Shown one piece after another: positions 29,436 to 38,887 of a stretch of 64,000 bases of DNA. The notes under the pieces were generated by a model. The model had not been told where the DNA came from. It did not search any database and worked only from the letters and a program-made list of their open reading frames with translations. The position numbers were made by a program, and so were the translations under genes. The stretch lies in contig JBKBWZ010000002.1 of the NCBI GenBank assembly GCA_046314385.1, positions 697,095 through 761,094 on the forward strand, in the 5' to 3' direction. This DNA comes from Alphaproteobacteria bacterium (GTDB taxonomy: Bacteria > Pseudomonadota > Alphaproteobacteria > Micavibrionales > UBA2020). Every line of letters starts with the position of its first letter. The first letter of the stretch is position 1.

Positions 29436-29831
29436 ATGAAAAAAAGAACAGCTCCCGCCGCAGATATCCATAAACAAGACAAACACGTGCTTGCCGCCGA
29501 TCTGCTCAAAAAACACCGCCAGAAGATCGATAAAATCGACGCCCAGCTGCTGAAGCTGCTCGGCGACCGCTTTGAAGTGGTGCGTGACGTTGCTGACGTC
29601 AAGATAAAGCATGATATTCCGGCCTTTCTTGGCGGCCGCGTCAACGAAGTGCGCAACAATGCCGTCAAGCTGGGCATTCTTTATGGAATTGATCCGGATT
29701 TCGTGCGCACGCTTTATACCATGCTGATTTACCAGTCCTGCGCCGAAGAAGAGGTGCTGAAGCACGAAGCGCAGCAGAAAAAATCCGGTATCAAAAAAAC
29801 ACCCGCTGCGCGAAAGCCCCGTAAAAAGTGA
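29436..29831 (+). CDS. chorismate mutase (AroQ class)
   Basis: RQKIDKIDAQLLKLLGDRFEVVRDVADVK is the AroQ helix-1 pattern. Small helical protein with a basic tail. The ATG at 29436 is preferred over the TTG at 29430. Confidence 0.7.
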   Translation: MKKRTAPAADIHKQDKHVLAADLLKKHRQKIDKIDAQLLKLLGDRFEVVRDVADVKIKHDIPAFLGGRVNEVRNNAVKLGILYGIDPDFVRTLYTMLIYQSCAEEEVLKHEAQQKKSGIKKTPAARKPRKK

Positions 29832-31174
29832 CCGGCACGCCCGAAAAAATCGGGGCGGTATCGGACGGGCTTGCCGCGCGGCAGGTTGCTTTTGCGGTAC
29901 TGAACGATATTTTTTTTCAGCGCCGCAGCCTTGACGAAGCCTATGTGCAGGCCGATGCCGCGCTTTCCGCGCTTGAAAGCCGCGACCGCGGTTTTGTGCG
30001 TCTGCTGGTGGCAACGGTTTTAAAGCGCGCGCCGCAGATGGACGCCGCACTGGCCGCGCTGCTGCACGAACCGCTTGAAAATCTCAAACCGCAGCAACTT
30101 ATCAATGTGCTGCGGCTTGGTATCGCGCAGATCGTTTTTTTGCAGACGCCGGCGCATGCCGCGGTCAGCACGGCGGTGGATCTTGCCGCCGCGGCGGGGA
30201 TTGAATGGCAAAAATCGCTGGTGAATGCCGTCATGCGCCGCATCGCGCAGGAAGGCATCGTGCAGCCCGATGCGCGCGAAGCCGGACGCATGAACACACC
30301 CGACTGGCTGTGGCAACAATGGGTGAATGATTACGGCGTTGAAACGGCGCTGGATATTGCAGCGGCCCATCTTGCCGATGCGCCGGTCGATTTCACGGTA
30401 AAAGAAAACCCCGAGCAATGGGCCGAGCATCTGGGCGCGGCGCTGTTGCCCTCCGGGTCGCTGCGGCTGCCGACGGCCGGTTTCGTGCCTGGGTTGACGG
30501 GTTTTGACGAGGGGGCGTGGTGGGTACAAAACGCCGCCGCCGCGCTGCCGGTCAAATTCCTTGCGGCGCATTTTGGCGGCGAGCTGCGCGGCAAAAAAAT
30601 TATCGATCTCTGCGCCGCGCCGGGCGGCAAGACCGCGCAGCTGGCGGCACTGGGGGCGGATGTGATCGCGCTCGACCGCTCCGCACCGCGACTTTTGCGC
30701 CTGCGCGAAAATATGGCGCGGTTGAAACTGGATGTCGAAACCATCGCCGCCGATGGCGCAGCATGGCAACCACAGCAACCGCTTGATGCCGTGCTGCTCG
30801 ATGCGCCTTGCAGCGCGACGGGGACAATACGCCATCAGCCCGATGTGCTGCGGCTCAAAGACATGCGCGATCAGGATAAACTCGCAGGGCTGCAGCGACG
30901 CCTGATGGTGAATGCGATGCAGATGCTCAAGCCCGGCGGGGTGATGGTTTACTGCACCTGCTCAATACAAAAAGCAGAGGGCGAAGCACAAACCGACTGG
31001 CTGCTCGCACAAAATACGGGCGCAGTATTCTCGCCCATCCGCACGGGCGAGGTTGCAGGCATAAACGCGATGCTCACCGCGCGCGGCGAGCTCCGCGCTC
31101 TGCCGCAGCACTGGCACGAACACGGCGGCATCGACGGTTTTTATGCGGCACGTTTTGTGAAAAACGCCGGCTGA
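29828..31174 (+). CDS. rsmB: 16S rRNA (cytosine-C5)-methyltransferase, RsmB/Sun type
   Basis: N-terminal NusB-like domain. DLCAAPGGKTAQL SAM motif, then DAPCSATGTIRHQPD and TCS catalytic cysteines. GTG start overlaps the preceding stop. Confidence 0.8.
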   Translation: MTGTPEKIGAVSDGLAARQVAFAVLNDIFFQRRSLDEAYVQADAALSALESRDRGFVRLLVATVLKRAPQMDAALAALLHEPLENLKPQQLINVLRLGIAQIVFLQTPAHAAVSTAVDLAAAAGIEWQKSLVNAVMRRIAQEGIVQPDAREAGRMNTPDWLWQQWVNDYGVETALDIAAAHLADAPVDFTVKENPEQWAEHLGAALLPSGSLRLPTAGFVPGLTGFDEGAWWVQNAAAALPVKFLAAHFGGELRGKKIIDLCAAPGGKTAQLAALGADVIALDRSAPRLLRLRENMARLKLDVETIAADGAAWQPQQPLDAVLLDAPCSATGTIRHQPDVLRLKDMRDQDKLAGLQRRLMVNAMQMLKPGGVMVYCTCSIQKAEGEAQTDWLLAQNTGAVFSPIRTGEVAGINAMLTARGELRALPQHWHEHGGIDGFYAARFVKNAG

Positions 31175-31252
31175 TTCCATATTTCCCGACTTTTTTACCA
31201 GAGTCCGCATTTCCAAGTTGTCCGATTCGAATCGGGCTGGTATAAAAGATTT

Positions 31253-33630: not shown

Positions 33631-33684
33631 TTTTATCTATAAAAATCAATAAATTATCATTTAACGCCCTTTTAAGGCGCTGTT

Positions 33685-33693
33685 TGTTATAAT
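33685..33693 (+). promoter_or_regulatory. extended -10 promoter (TGtTATAAT) placed for a leaderless or near-leaderless transcript of the 33700 gene
   Basis: TG at 33685-86 and TATAAT at 33688-93. The ATG at 33700 is 6 nt after the hexamer and has no usable SD. An AT-rich 70-bp spacer lies upstream. Confidence 0.5.
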
Positions 33694-33699
33694 GCAGGC

Positions 33700-34395
33700 A
33701 TGGCTTTGAAGGAATATGTACTTGATATGTTTAACCTGCGCAAAGACCGCACGGGATTTTTCCGTGCAGAGCCTAATGCTGTGCCTGTGATTTCGCAGGC
33801 GCGCGCGATCGACGTTTTCGATACGCTCAAAAACATGGATAACATCGCCTATGCTTATACCGATGACGGTTGTTATGCGCGCACGCATCTGATGTGCCGC
33901 AGCCTTTTCGGTATGGGGCTGCTGCCGGAAAAGGCCTGGGCTTTTGAAACGGACAACCGCGAATTGATCGTAAAATTTCCGCACGGCGAACAGACATGGT
34001 GGTTTCATGTCGCGCCTGTTCTGAACGTTGAAGACGGCAAGGGCGGCCATATAAAAATGGTCTTTGACCCGTCGCTCTTCGACGGCCCCGTCACGCTGAA
34101 GGAATGGGGAGATATCATGCAGGCCGAAAAAAACCAGATTTTTATCGCCCCCTGCGGCAAGGCGCCCGGATATCACCGCGGTGATTACACGCCGTATCGC
34201 CGCACCGGATGGGCGACCGATGACGCCGCGCTCAGCGTTATGAATGAATACGTGCAGCTGGAAAAAGAACAGGAATTTATGCCGCATGTTTTTCCAAGCA
34301 TCATGCGCAAGGCCGCGAATGATGAAAAATTTCATATCCAGCCCGCAGGTGTTCAAAAGACGGGAGGGCAATCATGCCGGAATCAAAAGGTGTGA
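33700..34395 (+). CDS. protein-glutaminase-like papain-fold protein (putative Cys-His-Asp deamidase), paralog 1
   Basis: Blocks DDGCYARTHLMC, WWFHVAPV and MVFDPSLFDGPVTL resemble the Cys/His/Asp blocks of Chryseobacterium protein-glutaminase as I recall them. No signal peptide by eye. Confidence 0.6.
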   Translation: MALKEYVLDMFNLRKDRTGFFRAEPNAVPVISQARAIDVFDTLKNMDNIAYAYTDDGCYARTHLMCRSLFGMGLLPEKAWAFETDNRELIVKFPHGEQTWWFHVAPVLNVEDGKGGHIKMVFDPSLFDGPVTLKEWGDIMQAEKNQIFIAPCGKAPGYHRGDYTPYRRTGWATDDAALSVMNEYVQLEKEQEFMPHVFPSIMRKAANDEKFHIQPAGVQKTGGQSCRNQKV

Positions 34396-34580
34396 TCCGC
34401 CGCATCGTCGAGCGTGACGGCGGGTTTAAAGTGTCGTTTCCCAATCATTCCGGCTATTTCTCGGTGGCTGAAGGCGAGAACCGCGACGATCTGATCGCCC
34501 GCCTGCGCGATGCGGCGCAAACCGGCACAACGATTACGTTTCGCTTTGATGCACGGTTGAAGATTACGGAGCTTTTGTAA
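34374..34580 (+). CDS. 68-aa hypothetical protein embedded between the two glutaminase-like paralogs
   Basis: Strong SD GGGAGGG lies 5 nt upstream of the ATG. It overlaps gene 1 by 22 nt and ends 3 nt before gene 2. Sequence: MPESKGVIRRIVERDGGFKVSFPNHSGYFSVAEGENRDDLIARLRDAAQTGTTITFRFDARLKITELL. Confidence 0.55.
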   Translation: MPESKGVIRRIVERDGGFKVSFPNHSGYFSVAEGENRDDLIARLRDAAQTGTTITFRFDARLKITELL

Positions 34581-34583
34581 ATC

Positions 34584-35237
34584 ATGGCCATGATAAAACG
34601 TCTGCTGTCTGTTTTTAATCCGCTCAGCGACCGGCAGGGCATTCTGCGCGCGCCGCCGGATGTGATTTCGCAGGCGCGCGCGCTGGAGGTCTTTGATACA
34701 TTACGGGCGATGCCGGATGTGGCTTTTGGCTTTCCGGCCAAGGGCTGCGAAGCGCGCGCGCATTTGATGTGCGGCAAGCTATTCGCGCTGGGGCTTGCGC
34801 CTGAAAAAGCCTGGGCGTTTGAAGTCAAGAACTGCGGCCTGACCGTTGATTTTCCGCACGGGCGCGAAGAATGGTGGTTCCATGTGGCGCCGGCGCTCAA
34901 GGTCGCGGATGGCAAAGGCGGCAGCCAGAAGATGGTTTTTGATCCGTCCCTTTTTGATGGCCCCGTAACGCTGGGCGCATGGGGCGGGGTGATGGGCGCG
35001 AGGTCAAATCTGGTTTCCGTCCTGCCCTATGGCCAGCCTTTGCCGGGGCATGGCGGTGATTACAGGCCGGGGGTCAGCACGGATTGGAAAACAACCGCTG
35101 CGGCCAAAAAAGAAATGCGCGAATGCTTTGCGCTGCAGCGTCAACTGGACTTTACGGTGCAGGTTTTCGCAAGCCCCCTGCGCGCGGCGGAGACGTCCGG
35201 TACATCCAAAAAACAGGCAATCCCGGCACCGGCCTAG
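34584..35237 (+). CDS. protein-glutaminase-like papain-fold protein, paralog 2
   Basis: Blocks AKGCEARAHLMC, WWFHVAPA and MVFDPSLFDGPVTL. 73 of 111 positions are identical to paralog 1 in a hand alignment of the central block. Confidence 0.6.
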   Translation: MAMIKRLLSVFNPLSDRQGILRAPPDVISQARALEVFDTLRAMPDVAFGFPAKGCEARAHLMCGKLFALGLAPEKAWAFEVKNCGLTVDFPHGREEWWFHVAPALKVADGKGGSQKMVFDPSLFDGPVTLGAWGGVMGARSNLVSVLPYGQPLPGHGGDYRPGVSTDWKTTAAAKKEMRECFALQRQLDFTVQVFASPLRAAETSGTSKKQAIPAPA

Positions 35238-37540: not shown

Positions 37541-38887
37541 ATGACGCCCGCCGCACGTATACAGGCGGTGATCGAGCTTCTGGCCGAGGTTGTCGAAACC
37601 CCGCGTCCGGCCGACACCGTGGCCAGCCTTTATTTCCGCGCCCGCCGCTATATCGGCTCCAGCGACCGCGGCGCGATCAACACCCGCTTTTACCGGGCGA
37701 TGCGCGAATATATCCGTCTCAGCTGGTGGGTAGAAAAATGCGGCGCGGAAACAACGCCGCGTAACCTGATTATCGCCGCGCTGATTTTTGACCGCGAACA
37801 TACCGCCGAAAGCCTACCGATGATGTTTTCGGGTGCAAGATACGCCCCTGAAGAGCTGACCGAAGCCGAATATAAACTGGCGCAGGCGCTGGAAGGCAAA
37901 AAGCTCGATGACGCCGAAATGCCGCTGCGCGAACGCTGCGAATGCCCCGACTGGGCTTTCGATGCGCTCCAGAGTGCGCTCGGGCCGCGGTTTGAAGCCG
38001 AGCTGAAAGCGATGCTTTCGCCCGCGCCGCTTGACCTGCGCGTGAATACCATCAAGGCCACGCGCGATGATGTGCTCAAACGTCTCAAGCAAGAGGGCTT
38101 CGATGCCGAAGCCGGTAAAATCTCGCCGCTGTCGATCCGCGTTTTGGGGCGCCCGCAATTGTCGCAGCATGAATTATACCTGCAGGGACATTTTGAAATT
38201 CAGGACGAAGGTTCGCAAATGGTGGCACTGGTCGCAGCAGCGCAGCCCGGTGAACAGGTGGCCGATTTCTGTGCGGGTGCAGGCGGTAAAACGCTGGCAC
38301 TGGGCGCCTCCATGGATAACAAAGGCCGCATCGTTGCCATGGATGTGCTGGGCGGCAGGCTGGAGCGTGCAAAAGAGCGTTTCCGCCGCGCCGGCCTTCA
38401 TAATATCGAAACGCGTTCGCTGACCAGCGAACGTGATAAATACGTCAAGCGCGCAGCGGGTAAATTTGACCTCGTGCTTGTCGATGCGCCGTGCAGCGGT
38501 GTGGGCACATGGCGGCGCGATCCTGATAAACGCTGGCGCCAGCTTGGCCCTGGTCTGTCGTCGCTGGTACCGCTGCAAAAAGACATCCTCGACAGCGCGC
38601 ACCGTCTGGTGCGTCCGGGTGGGCGTCTGGTCTATGCGACCTGTTCGCTGCTGCCGGAAGAAAACGAACTTCAGATCGAAACTTTCCTTGCCGCGCATCC
38701 TGATTTCAGTATCGATCCGGTATCGGCGCGCGTGAAGGTCGAAGGCGCGGGCGATTTTCTGCACATGACACCGGCGCGTCACGACACCGACGGCTTTTTT
38801 GCCGCCGTCCTGCGCCGCAAAGAGCAAGTCAGCGAGTCAAAACAAGAAGCCGCCAGCGACAAGGAAGCAGAACAGGCTGCGACATGA
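37541..38887 (+). CDS. RsmB/NOP family class I SAM-dependent RNA methyltransferase
   Basis: ADFCAGAGGKTLAL, DAPCSGVGTWRRDPD and ATCS motifs, with an N-terminal helical domain. Confidence 0.8.
   Translation: MTPAARIQAVIELLAEVVETPRPADTVASLYFRARRYIGSSDRGAINTRFYRAMREYIRLSWWVEKCGAETTPRNLIIAALIFDREHTAESLPMMFSGARYAPEELTEAEYKLAQALEGKKLDDAEMPLRERCECPDWAFDALQSALGPRFEAELKAMLSPAPLDLRVNTIKATRDDVLKRLKQEGFDAEAGKISPLSIRVLGRPQLSQHELYLQGHFEIQDEGSQMVALVAAAQPGEQVADFCAGAGGKTLALGASMDNKGRIVAMDVLGGRLERAKERFRRAGLHNIETRSLTSERDKYVKRAAGKFDLVLVDAPCSGVGTWRRDPDKRWRQLGPGLSSLVPLQKDILDSAHRLVRPGGRLVYATCSLLPEENELQIETFLAAHPDFSIDPVSARVKVEGAGDFLHMTPARHDTDGFFAAVLRRKEQVSESKQEAASDKEAEQAAT

Follow-up and report, generated by a model that had tools for sequence, protein, structure and literature searches.

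How does a bacterium make a protein-deamidating enzyme in its own cytoplasm without coming to harm? The question is raised by a locus in an alphaproteobacterium (Alphaproteobacteria bacterium; Micavibrionales; UBA2020), in a stretch of 64,000 nt from the forward strand (positions 697,095-761,094) of contig JBKBWZ010000002.1 of assembly GCA_046314385.1. We refer to this entire stretch as the window and count positions from its first letter. A first-pass annotation, made from the letters of the window, had proposed a system in which two paralogous enzymes resembling protein-glutaminase (PG) bracket a small open reading frame (ORF), and the three ORFs, all on the same strand, lie where it placed them:

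33700..34395, + strand, g1, gene for a PG-like enzyme of 231 aa (ORF call)
34374..34580, + strand, the small ORF, 68 aa (ORF call)
34584..35237, + strand, g2, gene for a second PG-like paralog, 217 aa (ORF call)

We consider it fairly probable that the locus encodes a split zymogen, that is, an enzyme and a separately encoded pro-domain that would inhibit it in trans and protect the producer from a potentially toxic deamidase. Canonical PG, in contrast, comes as one pre-pro-protein, in which a 21-aa signal and a pro-region of 114 aa precede the mature enzyme of 185 aa; it is secreted and activated by proteolysis (PMC6132073, PMC9396377). The argument for a split version begins with the homology of both components and their pairing across phyla, proceeds through the local history and expression of the genes, and then weighs the proposed mechanism and its rivals.

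Two enzymes of the protein-glutaminase family

The products of g1 and g2 are 52% identical across 205 aa (E 2e-76), and the 73 identities in 111 positions counted earlier in their central block are reproduced exactly. Both score well above the 25-bit gathering cut-off of Pfam family PF18626 (Gln_deamidase_2), g1 with 89.2 bits (E 2.5e-25) and g2 with 76.5 bits (E 2.2e-21), and the PGs in the PDB (2zk9, 2ksv, 3a54, 3a56, and 8z3i) align with both paralogs (E ~4e-7) over the Cys, His, and Asp blocks. The link to PG that the first-pass annotation had drawn is thereby borne out with the catalytic residues aligned, and the motifs it quoted for the three blocks are found in both proteins. The catalytic codons, placed by a 30-sequence alignment and the PG blocks, are as follows:

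33871-33873, 34006-34008, and 34066-34068, + strand, codons for C58, H103, and D123 of g1
34746-34748, 34881-34883, and 34941-34943, + strand, codons for C55, H100, and D120 of g2

C58, H103, and D123 (g1 numbering) are invariant in the 30-sequence family alignment, and g2 retains all invariant positions. When the AlphaFold model of g1 (predicted local distance difference test [pLDDT], 89.3) is compared with known structures by Foldseek, the six best matches are PG structures (E 6e-10 to 5e-8), with an N-terminal glutamine amidohydrolase and transglutaminases ranked next. The NCBIfam equivalog model NF040782 gives 44.7 bits for g1 and 35.9 bits for g2, far under its cut-off of 250. By these profile scores, g1 and g2 are members of PF18626 and not canonical secreted PG equivalogs.

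Neither a signal peptide nor an N-terminal pro-region was found in g1 or g2 by hydropathy or with the family profile, in agreement with what had been seen by eye; the match of g1 to the family profile starts at residue 3, and hydrophobic segments are absent from all three proteins (maximal 15-aa Kyte-Doolittle values of 0.85 and 1.22 for the two paralogs and 0.23 for the small protein). Each paralog is the enzyme domain alone, without a delivery domain, and an internal pro-like domain was found in none of the split-type enzyme ORFs searched.

An antisense ORF of 236 aa (33661..34371, minus strand) lies over g1 and is slightly longer than it. We rejected it as a gene, as the homology evidence is all on the plus strand; it would nonetheless win over the real g1 in naive longest-ORF gene calling.

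The small open reading frame as a detached pro-domain

If the enzymes have no pro-region of their own, what is the 68-aa protein encoded between them? No family model in Pfam or NCBIfam matches it. Its length is fixed and its identity is 65-100% across nine clusters, and an exhaustive HMMER search gathers 65 representative clusters, nearly all of them stand-alone proteins of 60-100 aa. The AlphaFold model (pLDDT, 93.2) has the order strand-strand-strand-strand-helix-strand-strand, and the PDB structures that Foldseek ranks closest to it are the pro-PG chains 3a56_B, 3a56_A, and 3a54_A (template modeling score, 0.77-0.78; root mean square deviation, 2.0 Å; 64 columns); 8z3i also appears, and the OB-like B subunits of Shiga and cholera toxins rank next. 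According to their sequences, the pro-PG chains in the PDB carry the pro-region as residues 1-114 and the mature enzyme from residue 115, and the A47Q mutant is changed at residue 47, inside KVSFMLT(A/Q)QFYE.

At the level of sequence, the relationship became clear only with deeper profiles. Pairwise BLASTP between the small ORF and the PG pro-region gives no match. A profile of nine small-ORF sequences aligns with pro-region residues 28-75 in a pairwise hhalign comparison (E 5e-4), and when 66 sequences of the small family are set against 103 PG pro-regions, hhalign returns a probability of 95% (E 3.7e-8) over 54 columns, pairing small-ORF residues 7-60 with pro-region residues 28-81. As a control, the small-family profile against the segment of the PG mature domain reaches a probability of 3%. 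The true score of 42.2 compares with 9.5 ± 1.9 (maximum, 15.9) for 200 column-shuffled pro-region profiles and with 14.6 for the reversed profile. The comparison also works in both directions: a hidden Markov model (HMM) of the PG pro-region directly matches one partner ORF (L030, E 2e-4; handles of this form denote loci), and an HMM built only from stand-alone partners matches 105 of 120 canonical PGs, always within the pro-region and with E values down to 1e-8. By predicted fold and by profile, then, the small ORF is a free-standing homolog of the core of the PG pro-domain.

Two features of the small protein are of interest for what it might do:

34431-34460, + strand, invariant loop V20-S21-x-P23-x-H25-x-G27-Y28-F29, the best-conserved stretch in the family alignment
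34449-34451, + strand, small-ORF residue 26, which profile alignments pair with Ala47 of pro-PG

Residue 26 is Ser or Ala among close relatives. The position of this loop bears on a rival explanation, namely, that the small protein serves chiefly to catalyze folding, like an intramolecular chaperone (as in transglutaminase and subtilisin) acting in trans. The enzyme would then need it once, in order to fold, and it would be neither a standing inhibitor nor an immunity factor. Pro-domains of secreted hydrolases often assist folding, and both the homology of the small protein to a pro-domain and the translational coupling described below, which ensures co-synthesis, would suit such a role. A catalytic chaperone, however, needs neither a strong Shine-Dalgarno sequence (SD) nor the stoichiometric co-expression that it implies, and the best-conserved part of the small protein is the equivalent of the loop that covers the active site in pro-PG. 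We therefore regard a role in folding in place of inhibition as distinctly unlikely; the two roles are not mutually exclusive.

Several other candidates for the family or its function were set aside. Seven long, multi-stretch matches to the small-ORF profile (P0066, P0107, P0111, P0117, P0118, P0120, and P0127) come from cadherin/Ig-repeat or repetitive proteins, and we dropped them as bias. A role for the small protein as a Pup-like substrate of deamidation or transglutamination was rejected because the family alignment holds no conserved Gln or Lys. Separately, the nine-sequence profile (A3) gives chance-level matches in the PDB (E ~1, not significant) to the BLF1 chains 3tu8, 3tua, and 6rvu over residues 3-27, where the helix-strand segment ALIARLRDAAQSGATISFRFDARL of the small protein resembles the N terminus of Burkholderia lethal factor 1, a glutamine deamidase toxin.

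Enzyme and partner travel together across phyla

Relatives were sought in one genome per GTDB species with peptide patterns drawn from the window's own subfamily; 106 were found, the best 80 were retained, and 79 loci entered the pairing counts. They come from Micavibrio and unclassified alphaproteobacterial metagenome-assembled genomes; from Bacteriovorax, Halobacteriovorax, other Bacteriovoracaceae, and Bdellovibrionales; and from Gemmataceae and other Planctomycetes, with single relatives in Herpetosiphon, Saprospiraceae, Chitinophaga, and a few other taxa. Predators dominate this list.

The partner is present at 61 of the 79 loci, in Micavibrio-like alphaproteobacteria, Bacteriovoracaceae, Planctomycetes, and Bacteroidota, and some of the 18 loci without one are cut by contig ends. 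Once converged, the partner HMM matches 82 of 8,188 ORFs, and every one of the 82 adjoins a deamidase gene, usually 0-40 nt downstream of the enzyme or with an overlap of 1-4 nt. The compartments of the two proteins also match. Alphaproteobacterial enzymes are stand-alone proteins of 217-252 aa, whereas the Bacteriovoracaceae forms carry the PG-like domain at the C terminus of 540- to 660-aa proteins with hydrophobic, signal-peptide-like N termini; the partner has a signal-peptide-like N terminus exactly where the enzyme has one (L054, L072, L076, L077, L086, L088, and L089) and none wherever the enzyme is cytoplasmic. The earlier suggestion, a trans-acting small protein that stands in for the pro-peptide the enzymes lack, is supported by the fold, the profiles, and the matching compartments, while the action in trans itself is a prediction.

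Copy number and order vary. Two partner genes precede one enzyme in L024, partners stand in tandem in L039 and L053, and whole modules stand in tandem in L047, while two enzymes followed by one partner are seen at L096/L022 and at L098. Together with the window, this makes three lineages in which two enzymes share a partner, and in each the paralogs are mutually best or near-best matches within their genome (52-55% identity). On this evidence, the sharing of one partner by two enzymes is recurrent, with an independent origin each time.

Three loci stand out for their surroundings. In Herpetosiphon giganteus DSM 589 (L091:4536-8015), a 381-aa fusion of WXG100 and Gln_deamidase_2 stands ahead of a tandem run of four lipoprotein-like paralogs (187-193 aa), which fall outside the pro-domain-like partner family; the locus looks like a polymorphic toxin of the type VII secretion system (T7SS) kind with an immunity array. 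At L097:6528-9920, an enzyme/partner pair lies beside two T2SSE-family ATPases, a prepilin peptidase (Peptidase_A24), and an N_methyl pilin gene, a single case that may hint at pilus/Tad-like delivery or may be coincidence. Lastly, L025:4908-7753 is labeled Patescibacteria and has alphaproteobacterial core genes; its enzyme, with the Cys motif present, lies between heparinase-like and rlmE genes as in the window, and other unannotated ORFs occupy the gap between the enzyme and rlmE.

The conserved unit and the origin of g2

Is the arrangement of enzyme, small protein, and enzyme itself the system? Contigs that carry homologs of the small ORF show the order rpe, heparinase II/III-like gene, PG-like enzyme, 68-aa ORF, third gene, rlmE, guaB, rsmB, DUF58, and batA. 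The third gene, present in every sister lineage, is no paralog of the enzyme. Its product, 179-203 aa long and without a Pfam match, is unrelated and combines a soluble N-terminal portion with two hydrophobic helices around residues 117-166 (L001:6221-6772, L004:6214-6783, L006:6221-6760, L008:6212-6778, and L014:5194-5805); in these relatives, the end of the gene overlaps the start of rlmE. We considered whether it could be a diverged paralog or partner and rejected the idea, as it is related neither to the enzyme nor to the small ORF or the pro-region, and has no PADLOC or profile link either.

The enzyme-small-enzyme layout is confined to the window's own species (L010-L013, in which the small ORF is 100% identical). 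L016, whose flanking proteins are 95-99% identical to those of the window, has the third gene in the place of g2, as does L014, whose g1 is 87% identical. Aligned with L016 and L014, the window keeps a nucleotide identity of ~90-95% across the flanks, 77-89% over g1, and 72-87% over the small ORF, and this identity collapses exactly from ~34590 to ~35330. Because homology to the sister genomes is lost over exactly this interval, these alignments show g2 to have taken the place of the third gene precisely, and in this species alone. Where g2 came from is a separate matter, and the signs for a recent tandem copy of g1 are mixed. A neighbor-joining tree places g2 on a long branch outside the entire syntenic g1 clade (0 of 100 bootstraps inside), a placement in which long-branch effects are possible. 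Within the genome, however, g1 is its best match, and the two genes share blocks of 73-87% nucleotide identity, offset by a constant 875 nt. One sublineage has yet another arrangement, an extra 366-aa ORF with no Pfam match between the third gene and rlmE (L006:6865-7965 and the same position in L018). The variation among third gene, extra ORF, and g2 marks the stretch upstream of rlmE as a recurrent site of gene gain and replacement.

The bracket that the first-pass annotation took for the system is therefore not conserved, since near-identical sisters have enzyme, small protein, and an unrelated protein with two predicted transmembrane helices. Gene neighborhoods elsewhere do keep the small ORF with the enzyme; among the syntenic relatives, it is the triplet that is restricted to one species. 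The case for an obligate system of three parts, one that could not function without a paralog on either side, could point to the three independent lineages with two enzymes per partner (the window, L096, and L098) and to the similar divergence of the paralogs each time (52-55%). Most loci, however, have one enzyme and one partner, the gene order differs (enzyme-small-enzyme versus enzyme-enzyme-small), and the nearest sister genomes lack g2, so that we give this explanation hardly any credence. Judged by gene order, the conserved unit is an enzyme with its small partner, not a small protein between two enzymes.

Expression signals and coupling

Coupling of the two genes was read from the junctions, and each detail noted earlier is confirmed: a GGGAGGG SD before the small ORF, a 22-nt overlap of the small ORF with g1, and a 3-nt gap to the ATG of g2. 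The signals are as follows:

33660-33665, + strand, TTTAAC, promoter region of g1 (cross-lineage alignment)
33685-33693, + strand, perfect extended -10 element TGnTATAAT (TGTTATAAT), promoter region of g1 (cross-lineage alignment)
34362-34368, + strand, SD GGGAGGG of the small ORF, 5 nt before its ATG and inside the nonconserved C-terminal tail of g1

The spacer ahead of g1 is conserved over nine lineages (the window and L001, L004, L006, L008, L014, and L016-L018): TTTAAC is followed by the invariant TTTGTTATAAT, 6 nt, and the ATG of g1, with no SD. These positions are invariant even though the g1 proteins of the nine lineages are just 54-87% identical. A generic promoter and terminator scan found nothing meaningful here, and it missed the extended -10 element because it required a -35 element. 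As the -10 element ends 6 nt before the ATG and no SD is present, g1 probably has its own conserved promoter and is read from a leaderless mRNA whose 5' end lies at the ATG or close to it. A short GC hairpin lies at ~33666-33679, between TTTAAC and the extended -10 element.

The partner, by comparison, is well provided for. A purine-rich SD 5-8 nt ahead of its start is kept across lineages, and the 22-nt overlap of g1 and the small ORF recurs in L001-L005, L008-L015, L017, and L019. A leaderless g1 without an SD, coupled to a small ORF with a strong one, should favor an excess of the partner, that is, of the predicted inhibitor, over the enzyme.

Chromosomal setting, selection, and two rival explanations

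The locus had been described as an accessory block, in part for its base composition. That description does not hold. The same slot between the heparinase-like gene and rlmE is occupied in L020, L025, L029, and L036, whose core proteins are only 60-80% identical; no mobile-element signal was found at the locus, PADLOC defense models and Rfam gave no match or nothing relevant there, and no relatives were found on viral contigs. The 69-nt spacer ahead of g1 is indeed strongly AT-rich (29% G+C), and it is the sole part that is. The figure of about 65% G+C for core genes was overstated: flanking core genes have 55-62% and the window has a mean of 57.3%, next to which the values for g1 (52.3%), the small ORF (55.1%), and g2 (60.4%) make a mild dip. 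By synteny, the locus is a vertically inherited part of the ordinary chromosome and not an accessory island.

Could g1 and g2, then, be housekeeping enzymes that deamidate an endogenous target, for example, one associated with translation or the ribosome, given the rlmE/rsmB/guaB neighborhood, with the small protein as a regulatory subunit? The fixed syntenic position across deep divergence, the absence of mobile, viral, and defense signatures, and the overlap of the third gene with the start of rlmE in relatives, which suggests one transcription unit, would all fit. So would selection, as the ratio of nonsynonymous to synonymous substitution rates (dN/dS) is 0.11-0.29 for g1 and 0.11-0.21 for the small ORF, which indicates purifying selection on both. 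Their dN, however, is 3-10 times that of flanking core genes (dS is raised as well). In addition, the pair is found in unrelated contexts elsewhere, the copy number of paralog and partner is variable, the gene downstream of the pair is freely exchanged, and the same domain is secreted or fused to WXG100 in other phyla. On balance, we consider a housekeeping role unlikely.

The same data bear on an intracellular toxin-antitoxin or abortive infection system, in which the small protein would be a labile antitoxin whose loss under stress or phage attack frees the deamidase to arrest the producer. Two coupled genes with the inhibitor downstream, two cytoplasmic products, and a raised dN are what such a system might look like. 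Against it stand the lack of PADLOC matches and of phage-borne relatives, a distribution within the clade that is neither patchy nor mobile, and a small protein that has no DNA-binding fold but a pro-domain/OB-like one. Moreover, both partners are exported in other phyla, unlike an intracellular suicide switch. We judge this explanation to be highly unlikely.

A proposed mechanism and what weighs on it

We return to the split zymogen as the reading that we favor. In our model, g1 would be made without a signal peptide or pro-region, and the pro-domain core would be supplied as a separate, translationally coupled 68-aa protein. We infer that this small protein physically binds the enzyme in the cytoplasm and inhibits it by placing the VSFPNH(S/A)GYF loop, the putative counterpart of the pro-PG loop around Ala47, in the catalytic cleft. 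The deamidase would stay silent until the two are separated, either as the small protein is degraded or as the enzyme is exported alone. The pair would act like an effector and its immunity protein, or a toxin and its antitoxin, with an inhibitor derived from, or ancestral to, the pro-domain of a zymogen. Can one such inhibitor serve two diverged enzymes? It is plausible that it can because a plug would target the conserved active-site cleft, and such targeting would also explain the recurrent layouts of two enzymes and one partner; g2, which is diverged but has its triad intact, would probably rely on the same small protein as g1.

What would the enzyme be used for? We speculate that it deamidates glutamine residues in proteins of other cells, whether prey or competitors, a use that seems likely because the relatives are concentrated in predators and one is fused to WXG100. 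A cytoplasmic deamidase that needs an obligate inhibitor would be most simply explained by toxicity, and this reading is supported by the Herpetosiphon fusion, by the signal-peptide forms of the Bacteriovoracaceae, and by the Dot/Icm genes that a survey of papain-like enzymes places near PF18626 members (PMC10318531). An effector or toxin role had been suggested from the outset; this putative role finds its support in these relatives, through the WXG100 fusion and the signal-peptide versions in predators, while nothing in the window speaks for it.

Several points weigh against this model. The binding and the occlusion of the active site are argued from homology to pro-PG, in which Ala47 reportedly lies in the active site as a plug (Hashizume et al. 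2011), a role that the titles of the PDB entries and of that paper support. Over the wider family, the residue equivalent to Ala47 varies (S, A, D, P, and N). At L025 and some other loci, an apparently intact enzyme has no detected partner. No secretion or delivery system was found encoded within the 64-kb window, and vertical inheritance at a fixed slot is unusual for toxin/immunity cassettes. Finally, the enrichment in predators is biased because the patterns used in the genome scan came from the window's subfamily.

To generalize the model further, we can ask whether PG-like deamidases with pro-domain-like partners are widespread, hitherto undescribed deamidating weapons of predators (Micavibrio-like bacteria, Bacteriovoracaceae, Herpetosiphon, and Saprospiraceae), with an immunity protein that shares its ancestry with the zymogen pro-domain, and whether the PG zymogen of Flavobacteriia is a derived fusion of such an inhibitor or immunity gene to the enzyme. 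This is possible, and we hold it to be doubtful. In L024, L034, and L084, the partner lies upstream of the enzyme, a gene order able to fuse directly.

Relation to known systems

The closest known enzyme is PG itself (EC 3.5.1.44; Chryseobacterium proteolyticum and other Flavobacteriia; 2zk9, 3a54-3a56, and 8z3i), with which g1 and g2 share the family of the catalytic domain and the triad, and whose fold the g1 model shares. The core of the PG pro-region (residues 28-81 or beyond) has its homolog in the small ORF. The differences lie in the architecture: at the locus the enzyme lacks a signal peptide, the pro-domain is encoded downstream by a gene of its own and not as an N-terminal part of the enzyme, and the linker (pro-region residues ~82-114) is absent.

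Propeptide-like inhibitors as such are a known theme, which includes the subtilisin-propeptide-like and cathepsin-propeptide-like families. The SpeB-Spi pair of Streptococcus pyogenes, as Kagawa, O'Toole and Cooney are said to have described it in 2005 (in Mol Microbiol 57:650), reportedly consists of an enzyme of the papain superfamily and an adjacent, propeptide-homologous inhibitor thought to protect the cytoplasm. The likeness is that a small inhibitor, here a predicted one, is encoded beside the enzyme and is homologous to the pro-domain of the enzyme's family, as seen in our case from sequence and model. Unlike the pair described here, SpeB keeps its own pro-peptide, whereas here the partner is the only pro-domain; the enzyme here is a PG-type deamidase and not a C10 protease, and the pairing spans several phyla.

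Two further comparisons come from effectors. MavC, MvcA, and Lpg2149 of Legionella are two paralogous papain-like glutamine deamidase/transglutaminase enzymes beside one small inhibitor (PMC7265302, PMC7156659), an arrangement much like that in the window. The Legionella enzymes, however, have Cif-type folds, act on ubiquitin and UBE2N, and are Dot/Icm substrates; Lpg2149 has no sign of likeness to a pro-domain, and no sequence relationship was found between the three proteins and those of the window. Polymorphic toxin and effector-immunity cassettes (of the type VI secretion system, of the T7SS with LXG and WXG100 proteins, and of contact-dependent inhibition) likewise place a potentially toxic enzyme before a small, cognate protective gene, and the PG-like domain is fused to WXG100 in Herpetosiphon. 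In contrast to these cassettes, neither g1 nor g2 carries a delivery domain, the vicinity has no secretion locus, inheritance is syntenic and vertical, and the immunity-like partner shares its ancestry with a zymogen pro-domain.

We came across neither the partner family nor the split architecture in the literature searched, and the pairing of an enzyme gene with a separate pro-domain gene is apparently undescribed. To the known theme of propeptide-like inhibitors, the split PG enzyme and pro-domain most likely add a fresh version. If so, ~65 clusters of "hypothetical 70-aa proteins" become candidate specific inhibitors of protein-glutaminases, and a testable mechanism is offered for how cytoplasmic PG-like enzymes stay harmless. 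The family may also serve as a natural experiment in the interconversion of zymogens and toxin-immunity pairs, and it draws attention to protein deamidation as an activity concentrated among bacterial predators, about whose killing chemistry little is known. PG is, in addition, a food-industry enzyme whose production hinges on the handling of its pro-region; pro-domains supplied in trans, as well as enzymes that naturally lack a pro-region, may be of use there.

Other features of the window

Beyond the immediate neighbors, the surroundings in the window comprise glnE, a yhdP-like gene, a prolyl oligopeptidase gene, recA, two-component and flagellar genes, and one tRNA-Cys. Two paralogous genes for RsmB/NusB-type 16S rRNA methyltransferases (29828-31174 and 37541-38887; ~30% identical) flank the region, and both are kept in sister genomes. 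At ~31175-31252, between rsmB and rpe, L016 has ~980 extra bases, which marks an indel site in an otherwise collinear region.

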